From a bacterium (GTDB lineage Bacteria > Chloroflexota > Dormibacteria > Aeolococcales > Aeolococcaceae), in the NCBI GenBank assembly GCA_021847925.1, contig JAJZNI010000016.1, forward strand, positions 1-50,508: 50,508 nucleotides of DNA. The letters are read 5' to 3'. The translations under genes were made by a program, and so were the position numbers. The notes under the pieces were generated by a model that did no database searches, was not told where the DNA came from, and saw only the letters and a program-made list of their open reading frames with translations. This document shows, piece by piece, positions 1-38,313 of this stretch (within the stretch, counting starts at the first letter, position 1; every line of letters begins with the position of its first letter).

Positions 1-969
1 AGCCGCCGCGACGCGCCCTCCCCCCGGGCCGTCGCCGCCGAGGTCGATCCGGCCGTGGTGGACATCGACAGCACCCTCGCCGGGGGCACCGGCCTCGCCG
101 AGGGGACGGGGATGGTGATCAGCCCCTCCGGGCTCGTGCTCACCAACAATCACGTCATCGCGGGGAGCGCGAGCCTCAGCGTCCAGGTGGACGGCACCGG
201 GCCCCGGCATCCCGCGCGTGTCATCGGGGACGACCCCACCCGTGACGTCGCCCTCGTCCAGATCGAGGGCGTCTCGGGCCTCCGCACGGTCAGCTTCGCG
301 GACCCGTCCGCGCTGAGCCCGGGGGCCGCGGTCTTCGTGATCGGCAACGCGCTGGGGCGCGGGGGCACCCCGGCGATCAGCGCGGGGACGGTGGCCGCCC
401 TCGGTCAGACCATCTCCGCGAGCAGTCCGACCGGCGCCACCGAGACGCTCCGGGGGATGATCGAGGTCAGCGCGCTGATCCAGAGCGGCGACTCGGGGGG
501 GCCGCTGGTCGACGCGTCCGGCCGCGTCGTCGGCATGGACACCGCGGGCTCGATCAAGGGCCCCATCACGGGCCCCACCACGAGCCGGACCGGCTTCGCG
601 ATCCCCATCGGGACCGCGCGCCGGATCGCAGCCGAGATCCGGGCCGGGCGGGCCAGCGGCACCATCGAGATCGGTCCGGGCCCGCTGATCGGCGTCATCG
701 TCGGCGACGCCGGCGCGGCGCCCTCACCCCCCAGCACCTCGGGCGCTGACGTGATCGCGGTCGACCCGGGCACCCCCGCCGCCGCCGCGGGACTGCGCCG
801 GGGCGACGTGATCACGACCCTGGGCGGGACCGCGATCACCTCGGCCGGGTCTCTCTCGACCGCGCTCGACGCCTACCGCGCGGGTCAGAGGGTGAGGCTC
901 GGGTGGATCGACCCGTCCGGGGAGCGGCGCAGCGCCGTGATCACCCTCGCCCCCGGGCCCCCCGCCTGA
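1..969 (+). CDS. Trypsin-like serine protease, S1C (HtrA/DegP-like) with C-terminal PDZ domain; 5' end runs off the window
   Basis: Frame 1 is open from base 1, so the listed ORF 55..969 only marks the first in-window GTG. Catalytic motifs LTNNHV (His) and GDSGGPLVD (Ser). PDZ-like segment GDVITTLGG. High GC3. Confidence 0.9.
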   Translation, partial: SRRDAPSPRAVAAEVDPAVVDIDSTLAGGTGLAEGTGMVISPSGLVLTNNHVIAGSASLSVQVDGTGPRHPARVIGDDPTRDVALVQIEGVSGLRTVSFADPSALSPGAAVFVIGNALGRGGTPAISAGTVAALGQTISASSPTGATETLRGMIEVSALIQSGDSGGPLVDASGRVVGMDTAGSIKGPITGPTTSRTGFAIPIGTARRIAAEIRAGRASGTIEIGPGPLIGVIVGDAGAAPSPPSTSGADVIAVDPGTPAAAAGLRRGDVITTLGGTAITSAGSLSTALDAYRAGQRVRLGWIDPSGERRSAVITLAPGPPA

Positions 970-1138
970 GCGCGGCGGGCGGGCTCCCCGCGCGGCCCGG
1001 GCCGGCGCCCGGCCTCCGGAGCGCCGCGGCGGACGCATGATATGCGTGCATGCACGGCACCCTGGGGAACCACTGCGGACGGCTGGGCCGGGGGCCCCGA
1101 CCGCCCTCGACCCGGCGACGCCGTCGGAGGTGAGCACC

Positions 1139-2416
1139 ATGGCAGAGGCAGCGCTCGCGACGAGGGAGACGGCGGTCGACGACCCCTGGCACAACGCTCA
1201 GCGGCAGTTCGACGCCGCGGCCGACCTCCTCGAGCTGGACGGCGGCGTGCGCGCCTTCCTGCGCGAGGCGGAGCGGCAGCTCATCGTCGACTTCCCGGTG
1301 AAGATGGACGACGGGTCGATCCGGATGTTCGAGGGCTACCGGGTGCAGCACAACCTGGCTCGCGGGCCCGCCAAGGGGGGCATCCGCTACCACCCGCAGG
1401 TGACCCTCAACGAGATCAAGGCCCTGGCCATGTGGATGACCTGGAAGTGCGCCGCGGCGGGTCTCCCCTTCGGAGGCGCCAAGGGGGGCGTCATCTGCGA
1501 CCCGAAGCGTCTGAGCCGCGGCGAGCTGGAGCGGCTGACGCGCCGCTACGCGGCGGAGATCTCCGTGCTCATCGGGCCGGAGCGGGACATCCCCGCTCCC
1601 GACGTCAACACCACCCCCCAGGTGATGGCCTGGATCATGGACACGGTCTCGATGAGCGCGGGGTACTCGATCCCGGCCGCGGTGACCGGGAAACCGCTCT
1701 CGGTGGGAGGCAGCCAGGGTCGCAACGAGGCGACCGGTCGCGGCGTGTCGATCGTCGCCCGGCGCGTCTGCTCCCGGCTGGGCCGCGATCCCCGCGACCT
1801 CAGGGTGGCCGTCCAGGGGTTCGGCAACGCCGGCAGCGTCGCGGCCCGGCTGATGGCGGAGGGCGGCTTCCGCATCCACGCCGTCTCGGACACGCGCGGG
1901 GCCGTCTGGAGCGACACCCCCCTCGACATGGCCGCGCTCGCCGCCCACAAGCAGCGGACCGGCACGGTGGCGGGGTTCCCCGATGGCCGGCCCATCTCGA
2001 ACGCGGAGCTCCTGGAGGCGCCCGTGGACGTGCTGGTCCCGGCCGCGCTCGAGAATCAGATCACCGCGGAGAACGCCGCGCGGATCAGGGCGGCGCTGGT
2101 CCTGGAGGCGGCCAACGGCCCCACGACACCCGACGCGGACGAGATCCTCTCCCGCCGCGGGGCGACGGTCGTCCCCGACATCATCGCCAACGCCGGCGGC
2201 GTCATCGTCTCGTACTTCGAATGGGTCCAGGACCTGCAGTCCTTCTTCTGGGAGGAGGCCGAGATCAACGACCGCCTGGCCAGGATCATCACCACTGCCT
2301 TCGACACCGCGTGGACCGCCGCGGAGCACCTCCACGTCCCGCTGCGGCTGGGCGCCTACACCGTGGCGGTCCAGAGGGTCGCCGAGGCGACCGCGGACCG
2401 CGGCATCTACCCCTGA
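1139..2416 (+). CDS. gdh: Glutamate dehydrogenase (Glu/Leu/Phe/Val dehydrogenase family), 425 codons
   Basis: Motif GPAKGGIRYHPQVTLNEIKALAMWMTWKCAAAGLPFGGAKGG and Rossmann motif VQGFGNAG. ATG at 1139 is preceded by GGAGG at 1126-1130. The upstream part of ORF 1037..2416 is treated as non-coding. Confidence 0.95.
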   Translation: MAEAALATRETAVDDPWHNAQRQFDAAADLLELDGGVRAFLREAERQLIVDFPVKMDDGSIRMFEGYRVQHNLARGPAKGGIRYHPQVTLNEIKALAMWMTWKCAAAGLPFGGAKGGVICDPKRLSRGELERLTRRYAAEISVLIGPERDIPAPDVNTTPQVMAWIMDTVSMSAGYSIPAAVTGKPLSVGGSQGRNEATGRGVSIVARRVCSRLGRDPRDLRVAVQGFGNAGSVAARLMAEGGFRIHAVSDTRGAVWSDTPLDMAALAAHKQRTGTVAGFPDGRPISNAELLEAPVDVLVPAALENQITAENAARIRAALVLEAANGPTTPDADEILSRRGATVVPDIIANAGGVIVSYFEWVQDLQSFFWEEAEINDRLARIITTAFDTAWTAAEHLHVPLRLGAYTVAVQRVAEATADRGIYP

Positions 2417-5409: not shown

Positions 5410-6327
5410 TCAGCCCGGGAACAGACCCTCCACCGAGAGGTAGCGCTCCCCGCTGTCATAGGAGAAGCTCAGGACGCGGGCCCCGTCGGCCATCTCCGGG
5501 AGCTTCTGGGCCACGGCGGCGAGCGAGGCTCCGGAGGAGACCCCGACCAGCATGCCCTCCTCACGAGCGCACCGCCGCGCGTACTCGGAGGCGTCCTCCG
5601 GGGCGACCTGGATCACGCCGTCCAGGAGGTCGGTGCGCAGCACCCCGGGGACGAAACCGGCGCCGATCCCCTGGATGGAGTGGGGCCCGGGGCTGCCTCC
5701 GGAGAGCACCGGGGAGAGGGTGGGCTCCACGGCGAACACCCGCAGCGCGGGCCAGCGCGCCCTGAGGACCTCGGCGCAGGCGGTGATGTGCCCGCCGGTG
5801 CCCACGCCCGTGATCAGGTAGTCGAGCCCCTCCGGGAAGTCGGCCGCGATCTCCGCGGCGGTGCCGCGCCGGTGCGCCTCGACGTTGGCCGGGTTGTCGA
5901 ACTGCATCGGCATCCAGGCCCCGGGGATCTCCCGGCGCAGCTCCTCCGCGCGGGCGATCGCGCCCTTCATCCCCAGCTCGCGGGGGGTCAGCTCCAGCTC
6001 CGCCCCGTAGGCCTTCATCAGCCGGCGCCGCTCGATGGAGAACGACTCGGGCATGCAGAGGATGAGGCGATATCCCTTGACGGCGCAGACCAGGGCGAGT
6101 CCGATGCCGGTGTTCCCGGAGGTCGGCTCGACGACCACCGACCCCGGCCCGATGAGCCCCCGACGTTCGGCGTCCTCGACCATCTCCAGGGCGATCCGGT
6201 CCTTGATGCTGCCACCCGGGTTGACCCGCTCCTGCTTCAGCCACACGCTGACCCGCGGGTCGAAGAGCCTGCGAACGCGGACGTGGGGGGTTCTGCCGAT
6301 CGTCTCCAGGACGCTGTCGTGGGGCAT
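5410..6327 (-). CDS. cysK: Cysteine synthase (O-acetylserine sulfhydrylase), PLP-dependent
   Basis: GGSIKDR (PLP lysine), [24 protein letters not shown] at 6325-6327 is preceded by GAGGAGG and lies 16 nt after the cysE stop. Confidence 0.9.
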
Positions 6328-6343: not shown

Positions 6344-7258
6344 CTAGATGGAGTAGTCGATGCTGTCCAGGGTGTCGGCCACGCTGCGCACCCGGATCTG
6401 GCTCGTGTGATAGACGAACGAATGCGGGGGTACGCCGGTCGTGAGCCAGACGTTCCCGCCGATGACGCTGTCGTGGCCCACGACCGTGTCGCCACCCAGC
6501 ACCGTGGCATTGGCGTAGATGACCACACGGTCCTCGATGGTGGGGTGGCGCTTGGAGCCGGCGGCGGACTTGGCCACGCTCAGCGCGCCGAGGGTCACCC
6601 CCTGGTAGAGCTTGACCCGATCGCCGATCACCGCCGTCTCGCCGATGACGATGCCGGTGCCGTGGTCGATGCAGAGGCTGTCGCCGATGGCGGCTCCGGG
6701 GTGGATGTCGATCCCGGTGCGCGCGTGCGCCGCCTCGCTGAGCAGGCGGGGCAGCAGGGGGGTTCCCTGGCGGTGCAGCTCGTGGGCGAGGCGGTGGACG
6801 GCGATGGCGACGAAACCCGGGTAGGCGGCGACAACCTCGTCCAGGCTCTCGGCGGCGGGGTCGCCGTCGAGGATGGCCTGGGCATCGGCCCGCAGCCGCT
6901 CGCGGATGTCGGGCAGCGCCGCGGTGAGCCCGGCGGCGGCCGCCCCCGCCCCGGTGGGCGGCTCCACCGAGCGGAGCATGCTCCCCAGCTCGGCACGCAG
7001 AAGGGTGATGCGGGAGGCCAGCTGGGCCTCGTTCGCGGTGCGCTCCACGCCCTCCTGGGGGAAGAGCAGACCGAGCGCGGCGTCGACGAAGCGGTCGATC
7101 CGCCGCCGCGACGGCAGCCGGGGGGGGCGAGCGCCGCGCCGCTCCATCAGGCGGCGGGCCACCTCGCGATCCGCGTCCACGGGCTCCCGGGCGTGTCCTC
7201 GGGGGTGCGCGCTCGGCGCCGCCTCGACGCCCCGATCCGCCCGGCTCGTCGCATCCAT
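6344..7258 (-). CDS. cysE: Serine O-acetyltransferase, long N-terminal (EpsC-like) form
   Basis: Hexapeptide-repeat core [44 protein letters not shown]-domain [16 protein letters not shown]. Start ambiguous: ATG at 7258 or GTG at 7309, and neither has a clear SD. Confidence 0.85.
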
Positions 7259-7346
7259 CAGGGCTGCAAGCCTGACAGGTGCGCGTGCCGGCCCGCCCGC
7301 CCACGCCACACGACCCGGGGTGACCGCGGGCCGCGCGGGGTACCGG

Positions 7347-8669
7347 CTACCGTGCTCCCGCCGGGAGCTGCCGGCCGCCCGCGCCCGGCAGCACCGTGTA
7401 CGGCCAGCTGGCGGGGCCGAACGGCACGTGGGCGCGCACCGTGTGGCCCTCCGCGCTCAACCAGCGCTGAAGGTCGACCCGGATCCCGTACAGCATCTCG
7501 AACTCGTAGCGGTCCGGGGGCCACCCCTCCTGCTCCGCGATCTCCCTGATGGCGCGGACGAGGGTGTGGTCGTGGGTTGCGAAGATGGGGCGGAAGCCGG
7601 CCTCGCGGGCCTGCGCCGACAGCATGCTCCGTGCCAGCGCCAGGTACGCGGCGCTCACCGCGCGCTGGCCCTGGTGCTCCTCCTCGGGCGTCGACGAGTA
7701 GGCGCCCTTGACGAGCCGCACCGCGGTCGGGTGGCGCAGGAGCGGCTCGACGTCCCGGGCGGTGCGCCGCAGCCTCGCCTGCAGCGTGATCCCGGCGGCG
7801 AGGCCCCGCGCCGCCAGGGCGGCGTGGAGGCGGAGGGTCGGCTCCACCAGCGAGAGGTCCTCCATGTCGAGCGTGACCAGGTTGAGACGCCCGGGCGGCT
7901 GCTCGGCGGCCGCTCGAACGATCCGCTCGGCGTTGCGCACGCAGAGGTCCGCGTCGGTGATCAGCCCGATGGCGGTGGGGTCGACGGAGACGTGCGCGCC
8001 CAGCCCCGCCGCCCCCAGGAGGCGGCAGGCCTCGACGGTCGAGGTCACCATGCTCTCGACGCGCTCCGGATCGCTCACGTACTCGCTGAGAAAGAAGAGC
8101 TCGGCGCCGATGTCCTGGCTCACACGGAGCCGCTGGGCCATCGCCACCGCGGCCTCCGCCGTGGGGGGCACCCGGGCGGCCATCTGCTCCTCGAACCCCG
8201 CGAGCTGCAGGCGCTCGTAGAGGTCGTGGACGTCCCCCGCGCCCAGCTCCGCGCCGAGCTGGTCGAGGAGATCCTCCTCGACCGAGTGCAGATGGCGGCG
8301 CAGCAGGCGCACCAGGGCGGTGATGTGGCGCCGGCAGCTCGCATTGTCGCTGATGCCGGCGGCGAACCGGGCGTGGTCGTGGAGCACCCTCGTCGCCCGC
8401 CGGTCGAGCTCCTCGCACTCCGCGGCGAGGCGATCCACCAGCATCGGGTCGACTCCGGCGAGCCGGCGCACCTCCGGGAAGAGGATCGACCTCTCGGCCC
8501 GCAGATGCGGGGTCATCACCTCCTGCAGGTAGTCCGACACCCGGGCAAACGCCGTGAGCTTGTCGGCGAACTCGGCCCTGTCGCGCAACCGGTCCTCGAG
8601 CTGGGAGACCAGGGCCACCCCGCTGCGGAGCCGGTCGTGCAGATGGCGCAGGCTGTCCGTCGCCGTCAT
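7347..8669 (-). CDS. Hemerythrin (HHE cation-binding) domain fused to monofunctional proline dehydrogenase
   Basis: The N-terminal ~140 aa have two HxxxE elements (PHLRAE, HSVEE). The C-terminal ~300 aa carry the PRODH barrel motifs RLVKGAY, FATHD, EFEMLYG and VPFG..W.PY. GC3 jumps to ~29/30 at the ATG at 8669. An in-frame ATG at 8759 has the better SD but lower GC3. Confidence 0.8.
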
Positions 8670-8932
8670 GCTCCCACCATCGCAGCAAGCGCAGCGAGGC
8701 GCCAGGGTCCAACTGCACGTGCCGGGACGGGACCGCCGTCGTGGCGCCGGGAGCGCCATCGAGCTCCCCGCCCGGCCGGAGCGCGGCCCGCGCGGGTCCC
8801 GCGACCTCGCACCGCTGCCGGGCTCGGCGCCCTCGGGGCGTCGGGGCGGCCTCCGTGCCCGAGGCGTGGAGCCGGACCCCGGGGCCTGCTCCCGGGACCG
8901 CGACGTGGGGGTCCTCGCCGGCGAGGGGGCCG

Positions 8933-11350
8933 TCAGGCCTCGATCACCTGGCCCAGGCGCTCCTCCTCCGCGGCGCGGTGCGCCACCAGCACGGCGTGCA
9001 GCCGCTGGAGCACCGGGCGGAAGGCGGCCTGGTCGCTCGGGGTCGGCCCGTTCGGGGCCACGTCGTCGAGGAGGCGGACGAGCGTGGCCGTGTCGCGGGC
9101 GATCTCGGCATGCTGGCGCCGCGCCGCGGCCAGCTCTCCGCCGCCGAGACCGTAATGGAGGAGCAGCGGGTACATCAGCTCCTCCTCCCTCCTCTCGTGG
9201 GGCAGCACCTCGTCGCAGAGGAACCGGCGAGCCTCCTCGAGCCTCCGGCGGGCCGCCGCCGGAGGGATCTCGCCGAGCGTGTCCGCGACCTCGATGAGGG
9301 CTCTGGTGCCCGCCCGCATGCCCCGGTGCTCGCGGAGGGTGCTCCTCCACTGCGACGCGGGCCCACCCGCGGCCCGGTGCTCGCGCGCCGCTCGCAGCGC
9401 GTTGAGGATGACCGCGGCGTCGATGACCTCCTGGAGAGCCGCACCGACCGCGGGGACGAGGAGGCCGATGCCGGCGAGCACCATGGCGCCCGCCGACAGA
9501 GCCATGCCCGCGGCCATGCTCTGGACCGCGATCGCCCGGCTCCGCCGCGCGATCTCCACCGCCTCCCCCACCCTCTCGATGCGGTCGGCCATCAGCACGG
9601 CGTCGGCGACCTCCGAGGACGCCGTCGCACCGCGCGCGCCCATGGCGACGCCCACGTCGGCGGCCGCCAGGGCGGGAGCGTCGTTGATGCCGTCGCCCAC
9701 CATGACGACGGTCCCGTGGCGCCTCTCCGCCTCGACGACCTCCAGCTTTCGCTCCGGCGTGCACTCCGCGTACGCGTCATCGAGGCCCGTGGCGGACGAT
9801 ACCTGACGGGCGGCGGCGGTCTGGTCCCCGGTCACCATCACGACCCGCCGGATGCCCGACCTGCGCAGGCGCTCGACCGCCAGGCGGGCATCGGGCCGGA
9901 CCGGGTCCTCGAGGACGAACGCCGCGCGCAACTCGCCGCCGACACCGAGGAACACGGCCACCTGCCCCTCGCGGGCGGCGCTCTGGCGGAGCTCGTCCGC
10001 CCACTGCGGGACCGAGCCGGCGCCGGCATAGACCGCCCTGCCCACGCGGAGCGTCTGGTCGCCGATCCGCCCGCAGATGCCCTGCCCGGGCTCCTCGCGC
10101 ACGGATCTCGGCAGCGCCAGGGCCTCCCCCGCGTCGCGGGCGGCCTCGACGATGGGCCGCGCCAGGGGGTGGGTGGAGGCCTGCTCCAGCGAGGCCGCGA
10201 ACCACAGCGCATCCGCGGATGAGATCCGCTCCGACGTCGCGACGCGCCGCAGCGTGGGGCGGCCCTCCGTCAGCGTGCCCGTCTTGTCGAACAGAACCGT
10301 GCGAGCTCGCCCCAGGACCTCGAGAGCCGAGCCGCTCTTCACCACCACGCCGCGGCGCGCACACCGCGACATGCCCCCGACCAGGGCGATCGGCGCGGCG
10401 AGGATCAGGGGACAGGGGGTGGCCACGACCAGCACCGCCACCGCCCGCGTCAGCGAATGCGCCGCGATCCCCGCCACGGCCGCGAGAGCGACGGTGACGG
10501 GGACGAACCACACCGCGAACCGATCGGCCATGCGCACGAGCGGCGCGCGGGACTGCTCCGCGGCGCGGACCAGGCGCACGAGCTGCGCGTAGGTCCCCTC
10601 GCTCGCCAGCGCGCTCGCCCGCATCCGGAAGGCACCCCCTCCGTTCAGCACCCCGCTGCGCACCGCGTCGCCGGGCAGGCGCTGCACCGGGACCGCCTCG
10701 CCGGTGAGCGGCGACTCGTCGAGGAAGGCGGGATCGACGAGGTTCCCGTCGAGGGGGACGACCTCGCTCGGGGCGACGAGGATGACGTCGCCCGGCCGGA
10801 TGGCGTCCACATCCACCGTCGTCACGGCGGCGCCCGCGAGCCGCCGCGCCGTCACCGGCGCGCGGTTGATGAGGGAGCTGAGCTCGCGCCGCGCCCGCCG
10901 CGACGCACGCGCCTCCAGAGCCCGCCCCGAGGCCAGCATCAGGGCGATGACGCTCCCGGCCAGCGTCTCCCCGATGGCGAGGGCACCCGCGAGGGCCAGC
11001 ACCGCCACCGCGTCGACGCTCACGTGCCCGCGCGCGACGTGGCGGACGAGATCGGCCCCGGAGAGCACCAGGGCCACGGCCGTGACCGCGCCCCACACCC
11101 AGCCGGCGGCGCTCGTGAGGCCCGCCCAGCGGAGACCACCCCCGGCAGCCATGGCCACGGCGGCCACCACCACGGCGGCGTCCATGGCGCGTCCCGGCAG
11201 GGGTCCGTGCCGGGAGCGGGCAGCCTCGCCGGACGCCGGTCGGCGCGGGGAGCCGGCGGCACCGCCTCGCGCAGGGCGCCTCTCACGCCCGTCGGGGGCG
11301 GGGGACGCACCGGGCCCGCGAAGGGACACCCGCGGGATCCCGCGCCACAT
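8933..11350 (-). CDS. P1B-type heavy-metal-translocating ATPase with TPCP transmembrane motif and C-terminal hemerythrin-like domain (P1B-5-like)
   Basis: DKTGTLT, MVTGD, GDGINDAPAL, and TM motif ATPCPL. No N-terminal metal-binding domain. C-terminal ~140 aa have PHERREEE and HRAAEEE (HxxxE). Start ambiguous: ATG at 11350 follows TGA-GGGAGG of the upstream gene; ATG at 11185 begins directly at the first TM segment. Confidence 0.9.
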   Translation of the reverse strand: MWRGIPRVSLRGPGASPAPDGRERRPARGGAAGSPRRPASGEAARSRHGPLPGRAMDAAVVVAAVAMAAGGGLRWAGLTSAAGWVWGAVTAVALVLSGADLVRHVARGHVSVDAVAVLALAGALAIGETLAGSVIALMLASGRALEARASRRARRELSSLINRAPVTARRLAGAAVTTVDVDAIRPGDVILVAPSEVVPLDGNLVDPAFLDESPLTGEAVPVQRLPGDAVRSGVLNGGGAFRMRASALASEGTYAQLVRLVRAAEQSRAPLVRMADRFAVWFVPVTVALAAVAGIAAHSLTRAVAVLVVATPCPLILAAPIALVGGMSRCARRGVVVKSGSALEVLGRARTVLFDKTGTLTEGRPTLRRVATSERISSADALWFAASLEQASTHPLARPIVEAARDAGEALALPRSVREEPGQGICGRIGDQTLRVGRAVYAGAGSVPQWADELRQSAAREGQVAVFLGVGGELRAAFVLEDPVRPDARLAVERLRRSGIRRVVMVTGDQTAAARQVSSATGLDDAYAECTPERKLEVVEAERRHGTVVMVGDGINDAPALAAADVGVAMGARGATASSEVADAVLMADRIERVGEAVEIARRSRAIAVQSMAAGMALSAGAMVLAGIGLLVPAVGAALQEVIDAAVILNALRAAREHRAAGGPASQWRSTLREHRGMRAGTRALIEVADTLGEIPPAAARRRLEEARRFLCDEVLPHERREEELMYPLLLHYGLGGGELAAARRQHAEIARDTATLVRLLDDVAPNGPTPSDQAAFRPVLQRLHAVLVAHRAAEEERLGQVIEA

Positions 11351-16887: not shown

Positions 16888-18036
16888 TCACACCACGTTG
16901 TGCTCGGGGATCAGCAACCCCCTGGCGAAGCGCTCGGGTGCGAACGGCGCCAGGTCGAGCCGGGGCTCCTCTCCGATGAACTGCTCGGCCAGCAGCAGCC
17001 CCACGGCAGGTGCCTGCTGAAAGCCGTGTCCGGAAAAGCCGCAGGCGCACCAGAATCCCTCCAGGGCCGACACGGGACCCAGGACCGGCTGGTGATCCGG
17101 CGTGGACTCATACAGACCGACCCACCCGGTGCGGACCCCGGCGTCGAGCAGCGCGGGGGCACGCCGTGACGCCACCTGCCCAATCTCCTCAAGGAAGCCC
17201 CACCTCACCTCGGTCGCGAAGCTGGGCACCTCCTCCCTGGCGCCCATGCCGAAGAGCAGGCCGCCGCCCTCGGGGTGGAAGTACAGGGACGTCGAGAAGT
17301 CGATCACCATCGGATGATCGTGCGGAATCCGCGTGAGCGGCTCCGTCACGAACACGTGGCGGGGGTAGGGCAGCACCGGTATCGATACACCCACCAGTTC
17401 GCCGATTCCTCCAGACCAGGCTCCCGCACAGGTGAACACCGCCGCCGTGGAGAGATCTCCTGCGCTGGTGCGCACGCCGGTCACCCGCCCCATTCGGGTG
17501 TCGATCCCCCGCACCTCCACTCCCTCAAGGATCCGTGCACCCATGCGTCGAGCCGCGGCCGCGTAACCGATCGTCACCTCGTGGGGGCTCGCGATGCCGT
17601 CGCTCGGGCAGAATGTGCCCCCCAGGACCCCATCCGTCTCGAGCAACGGGGTCAGCTCCCGGATCTCCGAGGTGCTCACCCAGCGCGCGTCGTCGACGCC
17701 GCAATCCCGCCACATCCCAAGCAACCCCTCGAATCTCTCCACATCGGCATCATCGGTGAGGACGAAGAGATAGCCGGTGCGCCGGAACGACGGGTCGACG
17801 CCGATCTCGTCGGGGAATCGCTCGAGCAGGCGGACCGCGAGCTGCTGGATCTCGACGTTGCGGCGATACGAGAACTGACGGCGGACTCCCCCGGCGCAGC
17901 GGCCCGTGGATTGAGACCCGAGAGTCTCGCGTTCACACAGGGTCACGCGCACCCCCCGCGCGCTCAGGTGATATGCGATCGAGCATCCGATGACGCCGCC
18001 GCCGATGATCACCACGTCTGCCCCGTCGCGCGTCAC
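16888..18036 (-). CDS. FAD-dependent oxidoreductase, DAO family (sarcosine oxidase beta / D-amino-acid oxidase-like)
   Basis: DVVIIGGGVIGCSIAYHL dinucleotide fold, C-terminal GFSGHGF. The GTG start at 18034-18036 overlaps the upstream stop as GTGA. The upstream part of ORF 16888..18324 is rejected. Confidence 0.9.
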   Translation of the reverse strand: MTRDGADVVIIGGGVIGCSIAYHLSARGVRVTLCERETLGSQSTGRCAGGVRRQFSYRRNVEIQQLAVRLLERFPDEIGVDPSFRRTGYLFVLTDDADVERFEGLLGMWRDCGVDDARWVSTSEIRELTPLLETDGVLGGTFCPSDGIASPHEVTIGYAAAARRMGARILEGVEVRGIDTRMGRVTGVRTSAGDLSTAAVFTCAGAWSGGIGELVGVSIPVLPYPRHVFVTEPLTRIPHDHPMVIDFSTSLYFHPEGGGLLFGMGAREEVPSFATEVRWGFLEEIGQVASRRAPALLDAGVRTGWVGLYESTPDHQPVLGPVSALEGFWCACGFSGHGFQQAPAVGLLLAEQFIGEEPRLDLAPFAPERFARGLLIPEHNVV

Positions 18037-19001
18037 CCGGGCTCGCCCTCGCGAAGCTCTCCACTCTCGTCCACCAGGCGGCGGTAGACAAGCCTCGCGA
18101 TCGCCCAATCCTGGGCGGCGACGCCCACGGACTTGAAGACGGTCCAACCTCCGCGAGGTGGCTGGCGCTGGCTGATGACCTGACCGAGCTCGACCAGGTC
18201 TGCCTCGCTGAGCCGTCCGGTTGCCATCGCCTGGATCAGGTCGCCCGCCTCCGCCAGCGCGGCGGGGAGGTGGTCGACGGCCACACACGCCGCGCGTGAG
18301 AGGACCTCGGCGGCCACCTCGCACATGTCGGGTCGGTATGCGCCGATCGCATTGATGTGGACGTGCTCGCCGAGGTCAGAGGCCTCGAACAGGGGACTCC
18401 TCGACGGGGTGGCACAGCAGATCACGTCAGCGCCGTGCACCGCCTCGCGAGTGCCTCCGACGACCGCCACCGCCAGGTGCTCATGCCGCCGGCGCAGCCG
18501 CCCCGCGAGGGCCTCCGCCGTGGCCCGATTCCGGCTCGCGATCCGCACCTCCTCGATGGGGCGAGCCGCCAGCACAGCCTCGGCCTGGTCCCAGGACTGC
18601 CCGCCCGACCCGAGTACCGCCAGGCAACGGGCGGCGGGCAGGGCCAGCGCGGCCGTGGCCGCCCCCGACGCGGCCCCGGTGCGCACGCGGGTCAGAGCCG
18701 CCCCGTCAATGTTGAGACGGGGAGTGCCCCTGGCATCGAACCAGACCGCCACTCCCTGGACCACCGGGACGCCGCTTCCCGCGTTGGTCTCGACCATCGA
18801 GACGAGCTTGGCGACCGCACCGTCCTCACCATCACAGCGGGCGATCATGCAGAGCAGTGAGCCGTCCCTCAACGCCATGCGCAGGGGCTGCTCCACCTCT
18901 CCGCGCGTCAGGGCGGTGAACACCCTCGCGACCTCGCGGATGGCATCTTCGACCGGTACAAGACGGCGCAGCGCGCGCTCGTCAACGAACAGGCCGGTCA
19001 T
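18033..19001 (-). CDS. Ornithine cyclodeaminase / mu-crystallin family protein (possible cyclic ketimine / pyrroline-2-carboxylate reductase)
   Basis: Family-typical N-terminus (LRRLVPVEDAIREVARVF) and Rossmann motif LAVLGSGGQS. Start ATG at 19001 (alternative GTG at 19022). Confidence 0.9.
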   Translation of the reverse strand: MTGLFVDERALRRLVPVEDAIREVARVFTALTRGEVEQPLRMALRDGSLLCMIARCDGEDGAVAKLVSMVETNAGSGVPVVQGVAVWFDARGTPRLNIDGAALTRVRTGAASGAATAALALPAARCLAVLGSGGQSWDQAEAVLAARPIEEVRIASRNRATAEALAGRLRRRHEHLAVAVVGGTREAVHGADVICCATPSRSPLFEASDLGEHVHINAIGAYRPDMCEVAAEVLSRAACVAVDHLPAALAEAGDLIQAMATGRLSEADLVELGQVISQRQPPRGGWTVFKSVGVAAQDWAIARLVYRRLVDESGELREGEPG

Positions 19002-19273
19002 CCGAGCGTGCCCTGCGCGCACGAACAGCCTGCAAAGGCCTGCCGGCTAGGCGGGAGGCCAGAGACTGACGCGAGTGCTCTCGTCCGGGGTCGCAGGGGG
19101 ATCTCCCACATCCGAGAAACCCGGATCACGAGCGCCCACGATGAACAGCTTGGAACTCCGGCCCCGGCGTCGCCACAGTGCCCGTGGCACCCGTGTCCAC
19201 AGCTTGAGGAGTGACCTGACGAAGCTCACCATCGCCCTCCCAACCTGAGGTCACCGCCGTCTCCATCACCGAT

Positions 19274-20701: not shown

Positions 20702-21979
20702 TCACGGGTAGATGCCCCGTGCCAGGGTGGCGTCGGCGACCCGCTGCACCGCCACGGCGTAGGCTCCCAGCCGAAGCGGGACGCGCAGGCGCTGGGCGGC
20801 CGACCACGCCGCGTCGAAGGCGCTGCTCATGACGCCCTCCAGGCGGGCGTTGATCTCCTTCTCCTCCCAGAAGAAGGACTGCAGGTCCTGGACCCACTCG
20901 AAGTAGGAGACCGTCACTCCACCCGCGCTCGCAACGATGTCCGGGACCACGGTGATACCCCTCCGGTTCAGGATGTCGTCGGCGGCAGGGGTGATGGGGC
21001 CGTTCGCCGCCTCCAGGATGAGCGAGGCGCGAATGCGGCCGGCGTTGCCCGCCGTGATCTGGTTCTCCAGCGCCGCCGGCACCAGCACGTCGATCGGCGC
21101 CTCAAGCACCGCGTCACCGGCCACGGAGCGCGTGCCAGGAAAGCCGGCCACGGACCCGGTGCGCTGCTTGTGCGCGATGACCTCACGCACCGCCAGCGGG
21201 GTCTCGCTGACGATGGCGCCCCCCGTATCGGAGATGGCCAGGATCCGGAAGCCGTCCTCCTCCATCAGTCGGGCGGCGGTGCTGCCGACATTGCCGAAGC
21301 CCTGCACCGCCACGCTCAACTGCCGAGGGTCGCGCCCGAGCCGCGCGCAGATCCGGCGTGCGACCGTGGCAGCCCCGCGGCCCGGCGCCTCGACGCGGCC
21401 CCGGCTGCCTCCGACGGCGAGAGGCTTCCCCGTGACCGTGGCGGGGACGGAGTAGCCCTCCGCCATGGATATGGTGTCCATGATCCAAGCCATAACCGCG
21501 GGAGTGGTATTGACATCCGGAGCCGGGATGTCGCGCTCCGGTCCGATCAGGACGGAGATCTCCGCCGCATAGCGGCGCGTGAGCCGCTCCAGCTCCCCCG
21601 GGCTGAGCAGCTTGGGGTTCACCACCACGCCGCCCTTGGCGCCACCGAAGGGGAGGCCCGCGATGGCGCACTTCCACGTCATCCACATGGCGAGCGCCTT
21701 GATCTCGTTGAGCGTGACCTGCGGGTGGTAGCGGATACCTCCCTTGGTGGGCCCCGGAACCAGGTTGTGCTGCACCCGGTAACCCGTGAACATGCGAATC
21801 GAGGAGTCGTCCATCCGGACCGGGAAGTCAACGACGAGCTGACGCTGGGCCTCCCTCAGCAGGGCCCGCACGCCGTGGTCGAGGTCGAGGAGATCGGCAG
21901 CTGCGTCAAACTGCCTCTGCGCATTCGGCCATGGGTCCTCGATGGAGACGGCCCGTCTCGGCAGCGCCGTTTGTGCCAT
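20702..21979 (-). CDS. gdh: Glutamate dehydrogenase paralog, 425 codons, inverted relative to the copy at 1139..2416
   Basis: Colinear and gap-free with the first copy by eye: same GGIRYHPQVTLNEIKALAMWMTWKC and LPFGGAKGG motifs, same length, same C-terminus RGIYP. ATG at 21977-21979. Confidence 0.95.
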   Translation of the reverse strand: MAQTALPRRAVSIEDPWPNAQRQFDAAADLLDLDHGVRALLREAQRQLVVDFPVRMDDSSIRMFTGYRVQHNLVPGPTKGGIRYHPQVTLNEIKALAMWMTWKCAIAGLPFGGAKGGVVVNPKLLSPGELERLTRRYAAEISVLIGPERDIPAPDVNTTPAVMAWIMDTISMAEGYSVPATVTGKPLAVGGSRGRVEAPGRGAATVARRICARLGRDPRQLSVAVQGFGNVGSTAARLMEEDGFRILAISDTGGAIVSETPLAVREVIAHKQRTGSVAGFPGTRSVAGDAVLEAPIDVLVPAALENQITAGNAGRIRASLILEAANGPITPAADDILNRRGITVVPDIVASAGGVTVSYFEWVQDLQSFFWEEKEINARLEGVMSSAFDAAWSAAQRLRVPLRLGAYAVAVQRVADATLARGIYP

Positions 21980-22046
21980 GCGGCTCACCCCCCCGGACGG
22001 AGCGGTGCGCCGTCCGCGCACACGATGGCCTTCCTCGCGTTCACGA

Positions 22047-22403
22047 TCACACCCCTCCGCCCTGCCTGACCAGGATGGCGGCGATCGGCACGGCAACGCA
22101 CAGCCACGCCGCGACGCCCGCGAGGAGCGCATAGGGCACGCCCACCCCCGCGCGCAAGGCCACGTAGGTGACAGCAAGATAGACGGCGATGGCGGGGACG
22201 GCGATGAGCGCTGAGAGCGAGGCGCCCTTCACCGCGCTCGCCCCCGCGGTCTGTCCCACGAAGACGAAGCCGACCAGCGTAACCACGGGAACCATCACGA
22301 GGACGCCCGCGAGGGCCGGCCCGACGCGCGTCGCGACGAGCGGGACCGTGGCCACGATCGCCCCTCCGGCCACGAAACGGAGTGCAAACTCGATCACCGC
22401 CAT
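22047..22403 (-). CDS. Small 4-TM membrane protein (DUF3147-like)
   Basis: 118 aa, strongly hydrophobic, high GC3, sits between the SDR and gdh on the same strand. Confidence 0.7.
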   Translation of the reverse strand: MAVIEFALRFVAGGAIVATVPLVATRVGPALAGVLVMVPVVTLVGFVFVGQTAGASAVKGASLSALIAVPAIAVYLAVTYVALRAGVGVPYALLAGVAAWLCVAVPIAAILVRQGGGV

Positions 22404-22493: not shown

Positions 22494-23276
22494 TCACCAG
22501 CGATACCGGTCGATCGCCATGAGCCCCGCGGTCTTGGCCCCGTCGATCGGGATCGCCGCACCGGTCACGAATGACGCCTCGTCGGACACCAGGTACATCA
22601 CGAGGCGCGCCACCTCCCCCGGTTCCCCGATGCGCCGCGCCGGGCAGACCGCGTGGGCACGGCGCCGGCCCTCGTCCTGACCACCCGTCGCGTCCCATTC
22701 GTCCCAGGTCATCTGGGTGGCGATGGGCCCCGGACAGATCGCGTTAACGCGCAGTCCCTGATCAGCGTATCCGAGCGCCAGCGAGCGGGTCAGGCTGACC
22801 ACGGCCGCCTTGGACGCAGCGTAGCCGACGCTCCCCGCCACCCCCACGAGCCCCGCCATCGAGGCGTTGTTCACGATCACGCCGCGAGACCTCAGCAGGT
22901 GCGGGAGGGCGTGCTTGCAGCACAGCCACGTGCCCTTCACGTTGGTGTCGAAGAGGAGATCCCAGTCATCCTCCCGCGGTCCGTCGAGCCCCTCGGCCAC
23001 CTCGACGCCGCTGTTGTTGAAGAGGATGTCGATCCTCCCGAGCTCGCCGGCCACCCTCTGCATCAGAGCCGCGACCGCGCCCGGGTCGGTGACGTCCGTC
23101 GCGGCGAAGATCGCGCGGGCCCCGCCCTCGCCGAGGGCCCGAGCCATGGCCTCGCCCCGCTCCCGGGAGCGGCCCGCGATGACGACCGAGGCTCCCGCTC
23201 CGGCGAGGAGCTCGGCGGTCGCCGCTCCGATGCCGCTCGCCCCTCCTGTGACCACCGCGACCCGTCCGGCGAGCAT
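22494..23276 (-). CDS. Short-chain dehydrogenase/reductase (SDR)
   Basis: VTGGASGIGAATA, NNSG, YAASKAAV. Start shares one base with the upstream stop (TGATG). Confidence 0.9.
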   Translation of the reverse strand: MLAGRVAVVTGGASGIGAATAELLAGAGASVVIAGRSRERGEAMARALGEGGARAIFAATDVTDPGAVAALMQRVAGELGRIDILFNNSGVEVAEGLDGPREDDWDLLFDTNVKGTWLCCKHALPHLLRSRGVIVNNASMAGLVGVAGSVGYAASKAAVVSLTRSLALGYADQGLRVNAICPGPIATQMTWDEWDATGGQDEGRRRAHAVCPARRIGEPGEVARLVMYLVSDEASFVTGAAIPIDGAKTAGLMAIDRYRW

Positions 23277-24373
23277 CAGGCCACCGCCGGAGCGCTGAGC
23301 AGGGCGCGCTCCTGATCCGGCCCCCAGATGTCACCGACGGTGAAGCCCTCGGGAAACGGGTCATCGGCGTCGACGACGTACTGCGTCATCGCGGTCACGA
23401 AGGCCTGGCCGCTCACCGCCGGCACCACCGCCGGGTGCCCGCCGACCGTCGTCGTGCCCACCACGCGACCGGTGAACACGGTGCCCATGATCCCCTCATG
23501 GACGAAGTCCTCTCCGATGCCCAGCCGGCCCTTGGCATGGAGGCATGCCATCCGGGCGCAGGTGCCGGTACCGCAGGGAGAGCGGTCGAGGATCCCCGTC
23601 CAGGTCTCGGGCCGGTCCCAATCCAGCGAGCCCGTCGAGACGACCACCGTGTTCTTGAGGGTGGCGTCGGGCCTGGTCGGCGGGGCGGAGAACTGGGTGA
23701 CGGTGACGCCGGAGATGTCCGGGTTCTCCGGGTGGACAGCCGGGAGCTGCTCGCGCGTCGCGGCCTTGATCATCTCGCCGAGCCGGACGATGTCATGGCC
23801 CTCGTCAGGGGTCAGCCTCAGGCCCAGCGCACGGGCCTCGGTGATGACGAACATCATCCCCCCGTAAGCGACGTCCACCGTCACCGTCCCCAGCTGGGGC
23901 ACCTCCACGTTGGCATCGAGGTGGAGGGCGAAGGCCGGGACGTTCTGGAAGGTGACGCGCCGGACGCTCTGGTCCTGAACCTCGGCGCGGATCCGCACCA
24001 GTCCGGCGGGGGCCTCCAGCGCGAACTCCGTGACGGGCTCCTGCATCGGCACCATCCCCGTCTCCAGCAGCACCGTGGCCACGCACATGGTGTTGCTCCC
24101 CGACATGGGCGGGTACTCCTGCGGCTCCATGATCACGTAGCCCGCCACCGCCTCGGGATCGCTGCTGGGCAGGATCAGGTTGCAGCAGCTCCCCGGGTAG
24201 CCACGCGGCTCTTTCAGCATGAGCCTGCGAAGCCCATCGCCATGCATCTCGAGATACCGCTTCTTCTCGAACATGGTCGTACCCTGGACGTTCAGGACGC
24301 CCCCCGTGATGACCCGGCCGTGGTTGCCCCCCGCGTGGGCATCCACCGCCGTGATGCATCGCGCCAGCTTCAT
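23276..24373 (-). CDS. Proline racemase superfamily protein, atypical Ser/Cys catalytic pair (PRS-A)
   Basis: DAHAGGN..RV, PMSGSNTMC in place of PMCGH, DRSPCGTG retained, C-terminal GDIW. GAGGAG lies 6 nt upstream of the ATG. Confidence 0.9.
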   Translation of the reverse strand: MKLARCITAVDAHAGGNHGRVITGGVLNVQGTTMFEKKRYLEMHGDGLRRLMLKEPRGYPGSCCNLILPSSDPEAVAGYVIMEPQEYPPMSGSNTMCVATVLLETGMVPMQEPVTEFALEAPAGLVRIRAEVQDQSVRRVTFQNVPAFALHLDANVEVPQLGTVTVDVAYGGMMFVITEARALGLRLTPDEGHDIVRLGEMIKAATREQLPAVHPENPDISGVTVTQFSAPPTRPDATLKNTVVVSTGSLDWDRPETWTGILDRSPCGTGTCARMACLHAKGRLGIGEDFVHEGIMGTVFTGRVVGTTTVGGHPAVVPAVSGQAFVTAMTQYVVDADDPFPEGFTVGDIWGPDQERALLSAPAVA

Positions 24374-24423
24374 CGCACGCTCCTCATCGCAGCCCTGGCT
24401 CCGGTTGACAACCCGTCGCCGGT

Positions 24424-24452
24424 ATCGTAGTCTTTGTCAGACAGTAAGTCAA
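24424..24452 (-). promoter_or_regulatory. Sigma-A-type promoter of the PRS-A operon with an operator-like TGTC/GACA element in the spacer
   Basis: Read on the minus strand: TTGACT (24447-24452), a 17-nt spacer tactgtctgacaaagac, then TACGAT (24424-24429), about 45 nt upstream of the PRS-A ATG. This is the most AT-rich patch of the divergent PRS-A/gntR gap. Confidence 0.45.
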
Positions 24453-35195: not shown

Positions 35196-36338
35196 TCAAC
35201 GAGATCCCCTGGGGCCCACGACCTCGAACAGGGGATCTCCCAGCGCCTCGGGGTCCACGTCGACGCCGAGCCCGGGCGCTGCGGAGGCCGAGGCCCTCCC
35301 GTCCTTCAGGGTCGCGCCTCCCGAGCGGGCGATGGGACGGTGGGAGGCGGCGGTGAGGTGGGTGGCCGTCACATGGGATGCCGCCAAGAAGTTGTCGGGG
35401 CGGCAGCTCGCCGCGAGCTGGCTGATCCCGGCGGTGGCGAGGTCCCCGCCCATCGGCTCGTCGATCATCACCATCAGCCCCGCGCTCTGGGCCAGGTCGC
35501 GAATCCGTGCGGCCTTCGTCAGGCCACCCACCCGCGCGGGCTTGATGTTGATGGCGTCCGCGGCGCCGCGCTTGAGGCAGGCGAGCAGGTCGTTGACGTC
35601 GCAGACAAGCTCGTCGATGGTCACGGGGAGCTCGGTTCGCTGGCGGACCTGCGCCAGCTCCTCCATGGTGCGGCACGGCTGCTCCACGTACGTGTCACGT
35701 CCACGGATGGCGGCGATGAATCGCAGAGCCTGGCCCATCGTCCAGCCGCGGTTCGCATCGCTCGTCACGAAGTCGGCCCGCCCCGCCACGGCGTCGAGCA
35801 CCGCATGCACACGGGTGGCGTCCTCGATCGGGTCCTCGCCCAGCTTCAGTTGCCAGCAACGGTAGCCGGAGCCGGCCATGGTCGCCGCCTCTCTGGCCAT
35901 CGCCTCCGGGCTGGCGAGGGTCAGGGGGTGGAAGACAGGGTAGTCGTCCTGATGGCGGCCACCCAGCAGCTTGTGCACCGGAAGCCCCAGCACCCTCCCT
36001 CGCGCGTCCCACAGAGCCGCATCGATCGCCGCCTTGCCGGGGAGGTGGCCGCGAAGCGCCGCATCCATGCGGTCGAGAACCACGTCGTTCGCCATCAGGT
36101 CGGCGCCGACCACGATCGGGGCCAGCTCCCTCACGGTGGCCTGCACACTCCCGGCGAAGCCCTCGATGTAGTTGCCTCCCAGAGTGCACGCCTCGCCGTA
36201 GCCCGTGACGCCGCCCTCTGTGGCCACCTCCACCACCGTCGTCTCCATGCGCGTCAGCGTCCGTCCGTGCGACATCGTGTAGCTACCCGTCGCGAGGGGC
36301 AGGTCGAGAGAGTAGCAGCGCAGCGACGTCACCTTCAT
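35196..36338 (-). CDS. Enolase-superfamily enzyme (mandelate racemase / muconate-lactonizing subgroup-like)
   Basis: Metal ligands in SDANRGW, YVEQPC and TIDELV. Barrel Lys in NIKPARVGG. WQLKLG sits where KxK is expected. The ATG at 36336-36338 overlaps the PRS-B stop as ATGA. The upstream part of ORF 35196..36707 is rejected. Confidence 0.9.
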   Translation of the reverse strand: MKVTSLRCYSLDLPLATGSYTMSHGRTLTRMETTVVEVATEGGVTGYGEACTLGGNYIEGFAGSVQATVRELAPIVVGADLMANDVVLDRMDAALRGHLPGKAAIDAALWDARGRVLGLPVHKLLGGRHQDDYPVFHPLTLASPEAMAREAATMAGSGYRCWQLKLGEDPIEDATRVHAVLDAVAGRADFVTSDANRGWTMGQALRFIAAIRGRDTYVEQPCRTMEELAQVRQRTELPVTIDELVCDVNDLLACLKRGAADAINIKPARVGGLTKAARIRDLAQSAGLMVMIDEPMGGDLATAGISQLAASCRPDNFLAASHVTATHLTAASHRPIARSGGATLKDGRASASAAPGLGVDVDPEALGDPLFEVVGPRGSR

Positions 36339-37438: not shown

Positions 37439-37449
37439 CCCATCCGCTC

Positions 37450-38313
37450 CTACTTCACCTTCAGAGCGTCAACGAACTCGCGCAGCCCCGCGCTCGAGGG
37501 GTTGCTGAAGGCGAGCGAGGGCTCCTCCTGCTCAAGGATCTGCCCGTCCTCCACGAACATCACCCGGTCCGCCGCCTTTGAGGCGAAGGCCATATCGTGG
37601 GTGACGATCACGCAGGCGATGCCATCGTTGCGCGCCAGGTTGGTCAGGATGTTGAGCACCCCGGAGGCGATGGGGGGATCCAGGGCGGAGGTGATCTCGT
37701 CGCACAGCATCACCCGCGGCTGCATCATCAGGGCCCGCGCGATGGCCACGCGCTGGCGCTGACCTCCGGACAGTTCCGAGGGCCGGCTGTGCATCCGGTC
37801 GCGCAACCCGACCTCGTCCAGCGCCGCCTCGGCACGGGAACGGATCTCGCTCTCCGGTTGCCTGAGGACCCGCCGCGGGCCGAGAGCCAGGTTCTTGTAC
37901 ACGCTCATGTGAGGCCACAGCGTGTACTGCTGGAATACCATTCCCACCAGCCTCCGCTGTGTCGCCCACCCATCCAGGTGCTTTCCATCCTTGATCACGG
38001 TGAGGCCGCTGATATCCAATTCCCCGGTTTCGGGCTGGGCGAGCCCGGCGATGACACGCAGAAGCGTGCTCTTGCCGGAGCCACTCTTCCCCATCACAAC
38101 CAGCATCTCGCCCGGGGTGACCTCGAAATCCACCTCGCGGAGGACACACCGCTGTCCGAAGTACTTGGAGATGCCGCGCCCCGCCACGATCGCACCACCG
38201 CCGTTTCCCTGCCGCGTCGCCCCGGGCGCTGCCTGGGCATGCACCACGCTCATCATCTCCTCTGCACGCCTCCCGGTCGCGGCTTCACCACCACTCGCGT
38301 CGCTTGCCACCAT
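37450..38313 (-). CDS. Polar amino acid ABC transporter, ATP-binding protein
   Basis: Walker A GKSGSGKST, signature LSGGQRQRVAIARAL, Walker B VMLCDE. GGAGGAG lies 7 nt upstream of the ATG at 38313. Confidence 0.95.
   Translation of the reverse strand: MVASDASGGEAATGRRAEEMMSVVHAQAAPGATRQGNGGGAIVAGRGISKYFGQRCVLREVDFEVTPGEMLVVMGKSGSGKSTLLRVIAGLAQPETGELDISGLTVIKDGKHLDGWATQRRLVGMVFQQYTLWPHMSVYKNLALGPRRVLRQPESEIRSRAEAALDEVGLRDRMHSRPSELSGGQRQRVAIARALMMQPRVMLCDEITSALDPPIASGVLNILTNLARNDGIACVIVTHDMAFASKAADRVMFVEDGQILEQEEPSLAFSNPSSAGLREFVDALKVK

Follow-up and report, generated by a model that had tools for sequence, protein, structure and literature searches.

This analysis concerns a gene on the minus strand of contig JAJZNI010000016.1 (assembly GCA_021847925.1; Dormibacteria, Chloroflexota), whose product joins a hemerythrin-like module to a barrel with the fold of proline dehydrogenase (PRODH). 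The window, i.e. the whole stretch of DNA analyzed, comprises 50,508 nucleotides (nt) of this contig. The fusion of a hemerythrin module and a PRODH-fold barrel is genuine and conserved. Tentatively, and with a likelihood somewhat short of even, the product is read as an O2/redox-responsive flavo-iron protein of low-oxygen respiration and not as a gated proline dehydrogenase. This reading is favored because both domains pass their Pfam cutoffs, the structural model is confident, and the barrel and the module match PRODH and HHE-type structures, respectively. It is further favored because the contacts to flavin adenine dinucleotide (FAD) are kept while the equivalents of the PutA residues K329, Q511, Y540 and R555/R556 are replaced, and because the gene is under purifying selection. 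Synteny with cydABDC and hyp genes in relatives is a third ground, a divergent fused gene (P0026) and a stand-alone hemerythrin gene (P0121) also being located behind cydABDC. Finally, related barrels with Asp in place of the active-site Lys (Asp-type) are encoded near an F420H2:quinone reductase gene or in a menaquinone cluster, and a relative of the hemerythrin module is encoded near 2-oxoacid:ferredoxin oxidoreductase genes.

The open reading frame (ORF) runs uninterrupted on the minus strand from the ATG at 8669 to the TAG at 7347-7349; G+C in the window is 67-76%. Pfam searches matched Hemerythrin (PF01814) at residues 3-137 with 49.3 bits (cutoff 25.3) and Pro_dh (PF01619) at residues 185-419 with 74.9 bits (cutoff 27). 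The AlphaFold2 model of the full-length protein has a predicted local distance difference test score (pLDDT) of 91.7 and a predicted template modeling score (pTM) of 0.83. Thus, the proposal of the initial annotation that one ORF encodes a hemerythrin/PRODH-type fusion was borne out, including the hemerythrin fold of the N-terminal part. Mechanically, the ORF reaches upstream to 9764, but this extension is non-coding, since the homologs all begin with M-x-x-T-D-x-L-R-H-L-H-D. A ribosome-binding-like motif, GGTGGGAG, is present immediately 5' of the ATG. In addition, a 4-nt deletion at 8805, within the spacer, was found in three of four independent metagenome assemblies, and any upstream extension of the ORF would therefore break. 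Scans for σ70-like promoters, terminators and Rfam families gave no match around the gene and the spacer. Three small metatranscriptomes of one study yielded only spurious matches of 18-35 nt.

Positions 7000-9400 are covered by Logan contigs from four runs, each of a different study; the samples are mine drainage, mine tailings, sediment and an unspecified metagenome. Across the gene, including its 3' end and the junction of the two domains, these contigs show substitutions only and 0 indels; the single indel among them is the one at 8805, outside of the gene. A joining of two separate genes by a sequencing or assembly frameshift, which the initial annotation had named as a possible refutation, is hence not seen. 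The survey of the architecture, performed on 5.8 billion proteins, detected the same combination of Hemerythrin and Pro_dh in 26 protein clusters of 60-78% identity, most of which carry the JGI name 'proline dehydrogenase'. The species-representative genome collection contains 14 full-length fused genes, all in metagenome-assembled genomes labelled Candidatus Dormibacterota, Dormibacteria, Changshengia or 'uncultured Chloroflexia'. The ratio of non-synonymous to synonymous substitutions (dN/dS), calculated pairwise among these 14 genes, ranges from 0.12 to 0.30 in the barrel and from 0.17 to 0.39 in the hemerythrin module. With values of 0.12-0.39 throughout, both domains are therefore regarded as functional and under purifying selection. 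No paper on a fusion of hemerythrin and proline dehydrogenase was found by full-text literature search, in agreement with the earlier statement that a characterized example was not known.

For the barrel, phmmer reported matches to the structures 5m42, 2ekg and 4h6q with E-values of 8e-34 to 2e-23. Foldseek aligned it to the solved PRODHs 2ekg, 2g37, 4h6q and 5m42 with template modeling scores (TM, target) of 0.80-0.93 and a root mean square deviation of about 1.9 Å. Residues were mapped by alignment onto E. coli PutA (NC_000913) and a fragment of the T. thermophilus enzyme. D268, Q297, R318, K321, H366 and L393 are kept and correspond to PutA D370, Q404, R431, K434, H487 and L513; the equivalent of Tyr552 and the conserved Glu196 are kept as well. 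The strings RLVKGAY, FATHD, EFEMLYG and VPFG..WPY are all found in the protein. Substituted positions are Asp230, Glu391, His414 and Leu427-Pro428 (Table 1), and Y406 of PutA corresponds to Arg299. The Asp at the position of residue 230 is found at all except 2 of 94 related loci for which it was scored. Helix 8 is considered missing because the Pfam match ends early (profile position 254 of 278), the score for the NCBIfam equivalog NF045947 (ProDh_Thermus) is low (151.7 bits at a cutoff of 500) and residues 425-440 are predicted to be disordered. The tail differs in length and sequence between the fused homologs. A frameshift at the 3' end was considered as an explanation and rejected: inspected by eye, the other frames after WPYTV contain no RRxxERPxN-like helix 8. 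Since the canonical 'RRVGEHP' of homologs is in frame with 'LPG..GEHP', the Arg pair was lost by substitution and not by frameshift.

In PutA, the carboxylate of the substrate is ion-paired with Arg555 and Arg556; Lys329, the proposed catalytic base, is in contact with this carboxylate and with the heteroatom of the ring, and Tyr540, Tyr552 and Leu513 pack against the substrate ring (PMC10651016). As Lys, both Arg and Tyr540 are absent, canonical proline binding is not expected. The barrel had been called complete and monofunctional; this is correct for the motif strings and the fold, but not for the substituted Lys, Tyr and Gln and the absent helix 8 and Arg pair. The protein lacks four defining active-site features of PRODH, and a barrel with these residues presumably cannot bind L-proline as characterized PRODHs do. 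Proline oxidation, the output assumed by the initial annotation to be gated, appears unlikely with Leu-Pro-Gly at the Arg pair, Asp at the Lys and His at the Tyr540 equivalent.

A scan of species genomes gave 415 tblastn-confirmed relatives of the query; context and residues were taken from the best 80 loci. Nearly all of these 80 have the exchanges Lys to Asp and Gln to Glu, which mark a wide subfamily of stand-alone proteins of about 315 amino acids (aa). It is represented in Achromobacter, Alphaproteobacteria, Bacteroidota, Ignavibacteria, Actinomycetota and Dormibacterota, and its members are named by NCBI only as 'proline dehydrogenase family protein'. The stand-alone proteins retain Tyr, WWPY, Arg-Arg and helix 8. 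In the tree, the fused clade is monophyletic and placed beside a Dormibacterota stand-alone paralog. The exchange of Tyr for His is confined to the fused clade and present in all members except the basal P0026. Loss of the Arg pair is likewise confined to this clade and concerns most members, P0026 retaining both Tyr and Arg-Arg. Leu-Pro is found instead of Arg-Arg in two places: one is the pair formed by the window gene and P0002, the other comprises P0014 and the crown group. The sister of the former pair, P0003, retains Arg-Arg; thus, either two (convergent) losses or a reversal have to be assumed.

Several gene neighborhoods were recorded for the stand-alone Asp-type genes. The Dormibacterota paralog (L013, L029, L033-L039, L091) adjoins a gene for an F420H2-dependent quinone reductase (PF04075). 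Often it has a C-terminal DCC1-like thiol-disulfide oxidoreductase domain (PF04134), and both Dormibacterota paralogs are therefore tied to redox modules. In one actinobacterial lineage, the gene is located within a menaquinone biosynthesis cluster; at L011, L012 and L038, an Asp-type gene in such a cluster stands between menD/menC and menA/menB/menE/ubiE/menF. In Achromobacter spp. (L041-L079), the order hmp (flavohemoglobin), Rrf2, DAO-type flavoprotein, EamA, Asp-type gene and AraC is kept. The arrangement resembles an inducible unit, either of catabolism or linked to nitrosative stress. Clustering of the neighbors of 30 diverse loci revealed no conserved metabolic partner of the stand-alone barrel; only an AraC-type regulator recurred (5 loci).

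The N-terminal module is predicted as an up-down bundle of four long helices plus a fifth (residues 3-29, 34-68, 75-103, 109-141 and 144-166) with a pLDDT of about 90; modeled alone, the module reached 89.6. Best Foldseek matches in the PDB are the HHE-type structures 2p0n (NMB1532) and 3cax (PF0695) with TM scores of 0.72-0.75, followed by the FBXL5 hemerythrin-like domains; their E-values, at 3.8e-3 or worse, are weak, which is common with helical bundles. H55, E59, H126 and E131 are invariant in 27 of 27 fused sequences, and H11 is kept in all 26 which cover that column. By alignment, these five residues fall in the ligand columns of the C-terminal hemerythrin-like domains of P1B-type ATPases, for which the motif H-HxxxE-HxE-HxxxxD has been described (PMC9388753). 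Iron is most likely bound through H11, H55, E59, H126 and E131. The helix-3 HxE column of the ATPases reads Ala/Asn-Cys-Glu in the fused clade, and no His is present. A His-Asp-His (HDH) motif follows 13-15 residues beyond this column. It is restricted to the fused clade: the closest stand-alone relative, P0121, reads R-D-R, and the ATPase domains have no His there. The HDH motif could form a second metal site or an interface with the flavin domain. The two HxxxE elements reported initially are conserved in one case, H55xxxE59. The other, H128xxxE132, is peculiar to the window sequence, position 128 being Gln in 23 of 27 fused sequences, and the conserved second element is H126xxxxE131.

Proteins with this module are rare: when 1.84 billion representatives were searched exhaustively with HMMER, only 12 matches at E ≤ 1e-3 were returned, namely a fused representative and otherwise mostly stand-alone proteins of 160-215 aa which cover residues 1-165. 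P0121, the closest of the stand-alone relatives, is 47% identical over residues 3-163.

In relatives, the gene is found in a conserved context. The order is large acetyltransferase/CoA-ligase, cydA, cydB, cydD, cydC, fusion gene, hypC, hypC, hypD, hypE and cvpA, with hypF on the opposite strand. This cyd-fusion-hyp order was observed at 14 of 14 fused loci of the species genomes and, in addition, on the metagenome contigs of P0004, P0005 and P0020. The divergent P0026 keeps cydABDC upstream and has no hyp genes. The stand-alone hemerythrin P0121 occupies the same slot directly after cydABDC, and 2-oxoacid:ferredoxin oxidoreductase genes follow 1.5 kb further on. P0123 adjoins genes for 2-oxoacid:ferredoxin oxidoreductase, OsmC, Usp and a GAF-GAF histidine kinase/NarL pair. 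From the contexts of P0121 and P0123 it follows that it is the hemerythrin module which is linked to low-oxygen respiration, and that the barrel was added to this module. At L094-L098, stand-alone relatives of the module adjoin genes for 2-oxoacid:ferredoxin oxidoreductase, OsmC and Usp, and for a GAF-GAF histidine kinase together with its neighboring NarL-type regulator; their surroundings look like a hypoxia or oxidative-stress neighborhood.

Taken as an O2/redox-responsive flavo-iron protein, the fusion would work as follows. The iron module would sense O2 or the redox state. The flavin barrel, its proline site lost, would still move electrons, most plausibly to or from the pool of menaquinone, in the manner of other members of the PRODH family. 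The iron centre would either control the electron flow of the flavin or exchange electrons with it directly, and the tie to low-oxygen respiration would run via cytochrome bd. The analysis shows what the domains are, that ligands and FAD motifs are conserved, that the proline site is lost, and that selection is purifying and synteny present; binding of iron and FAD, the quinone link, O2 responsiveness and domain coupling are all inferred.

The following points weigh against this reading. First, the window gene and its two nearest relatives (78% and 72% identity) are not located beside cyd genes: P0002 (78%) follows a divergent MerR gene, and P0003 (72%) has neither ATPase nor cyd genes nearby. 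The synteny argument is thus borrowed from homologs of 60-67% identity. Second, the His ligand expected in helix 3 for a di-iron site is absent at the aligned column, which makes a classical di-iron site with five His improbable. The metal centre may differ from the classical type, and the di-iron sensor assumed by the initial annotation is not supported by the ligand set, which departs from that of canonical di-iron hemerythrins. Third, P0003 and P0026 keep the Arg pair, so some activity on carboxylate substrates may persist in the clade.

Of the alternatives, a self-contained flavo-iron oxidoreductase is placed best, although it is unlikely. Here, the FAD would be the built-in reductase of the hemerythrin iron centre, electrons would come from menaquinol or a small donor, and the iron would reduce O2, H2O2 or NO. 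Such an enzyme would scavenge oxidants beside cytochrome bd and protect oxygen-sensitive processes, e.g. [NiFe]-hydrogenase maturation. The helix-8 lid and the substrate residues are lost, yet purifying selection is strong and the FAD motifs are kept; the HDH motif is found in fused proteins only; and the gene stands between cydABDC and hypCDE. Stand-alone relatives are encoded beside 2-oxoacid:ferredoxin oxidoreductases, and C. jejuni hemerythrins have been reported to protect such Fe-S enzymes from oxidative damage (PMC4257069), a protective role which fits. On the other side, the proposal is purely inferential, its helix-3 ligand is uncertain, and characterized bacterial hemerythrin-domain fusions are sensors and not catalysts (PMC9388753). 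The most specific version is improbable: that a PRODH barrel, its flavin opened to the iron module once helix 8 and the amino-acid site had gone, was turned into the built-in flavin reductase of a hemerythrin-type iron centre, to give a menaquinone-wired O2/H2O2/NO reductase which protects hydrogenase maturation beside cytochrome bd in Dormibacterota and relatives.

A conventional O2/redox switch on a dehydrogenase for another small molecule, as across the Asp-type subfamily, is rather unlikely. Asp and Glu stand for Lys and Gln throughout the wide stand-alone subfamily, which also retains Tyr and the two Arg; an AraC-type regulator often accompanies its genes, which suggests an inducible catabolic enzyme for the stand-alone proteins. 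The fused clade, however, has neither the Tyr nor the Arg pair of the stand-alone proteins, which argues for a divergence beyond a simple change of substrate, and a conserved metabolic partner gene was not found among the neighbors of 30 diverse loci.

A genuine L-proline dehydrogenase which feeds proline (e.g. from 3-hydroxyproline-type genes) into pyrroline-5-carboxylate (P5C), with its activity gated by a fused di-iron sensor of O2 or iron, is quite improbable. The Pfam match and the PRODH fold are consistent with it, as are the FAD motifs, the kept Glu196 and equivalents of Asp370, Leu513 and Tyr552, and the Arg pair retained in two fused members. The window also contains Pro_racemase-family, cis-3-hydroxyproline dehydratase-like and pyrroline-2-carboxylate reductase-like genes, and hydroxyproline-type pathway genes of this kind could yield proline. 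Against it stand the exchanges K329 to Asp, R555/R556 to Leu-Pro-Gly, Y540 to His and Q511 to Glu, the absence of helix 8 and an NCBIfam PRODH equivalog score far below the cutoff. Furthermore, no adjoining aldehyde or P5C dehydrogenase gene was present in 80 related loci; a single such gene was seen within 10 kb, at a distance of about 6 kb in L077. Pairing of PRODH with P5C dehydrogenase, by gene order or covalently, is frequent though not a necessity. The fusion gene had been proposed to supply the proline-to-P5C step for the imino-acid cluster of the window. The genes of this cluster are real, but the cluster is at least 9 kb away behind unrelated genes (HtrA protease, two-component system, glycerate kinase), the conserved context in relatives is cyd/hyp, and nothing ties the imino-acid genes to the fusion gene. 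Lastly, an artefact joining two genes by assembly or sequencing error, already refuted, or a decaying pseudogene with a non-functional barrel, for which the disordered and variable C-terminal tail might speak, can be dismissed as very improbable, given four concordant independent assemblies free of indels, 26 homologous clusters of the same architecture, dN/dS of 0.12-0.39 in both domains and invariant FAD motifs.

Compared with known systems, the T. thermophilus (2g37, 2ekg, 5m42) and D. radiodurans (4h6q, 4h6r) PRODHs have the same barrel at 30-35% identity and share the FAD-contact motifs DMED, LQA, RLVKGA and ATHD with the fusion. They differ in that the fusion has Asp for Lys, Glu for the Gln of EFQ, His for Tyr, Leu-Pro for Arg-Arg and no helix 8, while their N-terminal helices are replaced by the 166-residue hemerythrin-like module. 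The stand-alone Asp-type proteins, 45-58% identical in the barrel, have the exchanges Lys to Asp and Gln to Glu in common with the fusion. Unlike the fusion, they keep Tyr, WWPY, Arg-Arg and helix 8, lack the hemerythrin module and in some cases have a DCC1-like domain. The bacterial hemerythrin sensors DcrH, Bhr-DGC as well as Bhr-HD-GYP also have a hemerythrin bundle covalently joined to an output (PMC9388753). In contrast to DcrH-type sensors, the ligands of the fusion are not the canonical H-HxxxE-HxxxH-HxxxxD, and its output is a flavin barrel instead of a signaling domain. According to a review of 2022, characterized partners of the hemerythrin domain in bacterial sensors are methyl-accepting chemotaxis protein, GGDEF, HD-GYP and P1B-5 ATPase only (PMC9388753). 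The H, HxxxE and HxxxxD/E columns of the P1B-5 ATPase C-terminal domain (A. cellulolyticus, S. meliloti Nia) align with the fusion; the helix-3 HxE is absent from it, and the domains are not close paralogs. NMB1532 (2p0n), PF0695 (3cax) and the iron/oxygen-sensing domain of FBXL5 (3v5x-z, 3u9j) are the best structural matches of the module (TM 0.5-0.75), with identities of 10-20% only and weak E-values. Flavodiiron proteins offer a functional analogy only: they combine flavin and non-heme iron in one polypeptide and are linked to O2/NO stress. Their folds, a metallo-beta-lactamase-like di-iron domain and a flavodoxin domain, are entirely different from those of the fusion.

The protein family is thus already known in the databases under a misleading name; new is the output domain attached to a hemerythrin-type module. 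The name 'proline dehydrogenase' would credit Dormibacterota and relatives with a proline-catabolic step which the active site does not support. If the new role of the barrel is true, no PRODH-fold protein would have been shown before to function in the absence of the Lys/Arg/Arg proline site, and no earlier case of a hemerythrin-type module on a flavoenzyme would be known. Dormibacterota have been reported to live on atmospheric trace gases. In such a phylum, the fixed slot of the gene, with the cytochrome bd operon on one side and genes for [NiFe]-hydrogenase maturation on the other, hints at a component of oxygen handling at low concentration. A full-text literature search found no paper on Dormibacterota with cytochrome bd and hydrogenase. 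As it stands, this exemplifies how a catalytic barrel was repurposed once it had been fused, in a phylum of which little is understood, and is not yet evidence of a new principle. The fusion protein is small, looks soluble and should be simple to express.

The features of the gene and of its neighbors in the window are given in Table 1.

Table 1. Positions of the fusion gene, its parts and neighboring features in the window
Feature	Position	Strand	Remarks
Whole coding sequence, hemerythrin-like module and PRODH-fold barrel	7347..8669	-	440 aa plus stop; ORF, Pfam, AlphaFold2
Five-helix hemerythrin-like module, residues 1-166	8172..8669	-	Pfam match, residues 3-137, at 8259-8663
Candidate metal ligand span	8277..8639	-	H11 8637-8639; H55 8505-8507; E59 8493-8495; H126 8292-8294; E131 8277-8279
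H97-D98-H99 motif near the end of helix 3	8373..8381	-	H97 in 26/27, D98 in 27/27, H99 in 23/27 fused sequences
PRODH-fold (beta-alpha)8 barrel, residues 171-424	7398..8159	-	FAD-contact motifs kept; phmmer, Foldseek
Asp230 codon	7980..7982	-	Replaces active-site Lys (PutA K329; T. thermophilus ISLKLTQLG)
Glu391 codon	7497..7499	-	Replaces Gln of the EFQxLxG motif (PutA Q511)
His414 codon	7428..7430	-	Replaces active-site Tyr (PutA Y540)
Leu427-Pro428 codons	7386..7391	-	Replace helix-8 Arg-Arg pair (PutA R555/R556); Gly429 next
C-terminal tail, residues 425-440	7350..7397	-	Predicted disordered (pLDDT below 50); stands where helix 8 would be
Non-coding spacer, ATPase stop to fusion ATG	8670..8932	-	263 nt; carries the GGTGGGAG motif
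P1B-type heavy-metal ATPase with its own hemerythrin domain	8933..11350	-	TIGR01525 498.9 bits; Pfam E1-E2_ATPase, Hydrolase, Hemerythrin
Serine O-acetyltransferase-like gene, downstream	6344-7258 or 7309	-	NCBIfam EpsC 152 bits (cutoff 150)
Cysteine synthase A (cysK), downstream	5410-6327	-	NCBIfam cysK 375 bits (cutoff 351)
Imino-acid catabolic region	18033-45768		Starts about 9 kb from the fusion gene
Pro_racemase-family paralogs (three)	23276-24436, 36335-37468, 40099-41205
cis-3-Hydroxyproline dehydratase-like enolase	35196-36788
OCD/pyrroline-2-carboxylate reductase-like gene	18033-19046

Upstream of the fusion gene, the ATPase has a C-terminal PF01814 match of 57.4 bits with the motifs REH, PHERREE, QHAE and AHRAAEE. 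Its architecture is common to all 120 best homologs; the search gave only hits of 57-61% identity, with mixed labels (Acidoferrales, Actinomycetota). A TPCP motif is found at 10409-10420 together with a QExxD string; we take both to be signatures of the P1B-5 subgroup. By its architecture, the ATPase matches the P1B-5 type as described (PMC9388753). For this type, the transported metal and the role of the hemerythrin are still debated. The ATPase is a possible operon partner of the fusion gene; the adjacency is not conserved, being absent in the nearest relatives P0002 and P0003. Two hemerythrin-bearing genes thus adjoin in the window, and their hemerythrin domains are not close paralogs. An origin of the module by duplication of the ATPase domain was considered and rejected, as BLASTP gave only a 19-residue motif match with an E-value of 0.04.

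The imino-acid region further contains genes for amine-oxidase and DAO-type flavoproteins, a DHDPS-like protein, two aldehyde dehydrogenases and two aminotransferases of class III, as well as for a GntR regulator and an ABC transporter of amino acids; the scores of the genes of this region are all below the equivalog cutoffs. The aldehyde dehydrogenases of the window are at least 21 kb from the fusion gene and score below the P5C dehydrogenase cutoffs. Two genes of the Glu/Leu/Phe/Val dehydrogenase family are present in the window, at 941-2416 (plus strand) and 20702-22228 (minus strand), one of which is located within the imino-acid region.

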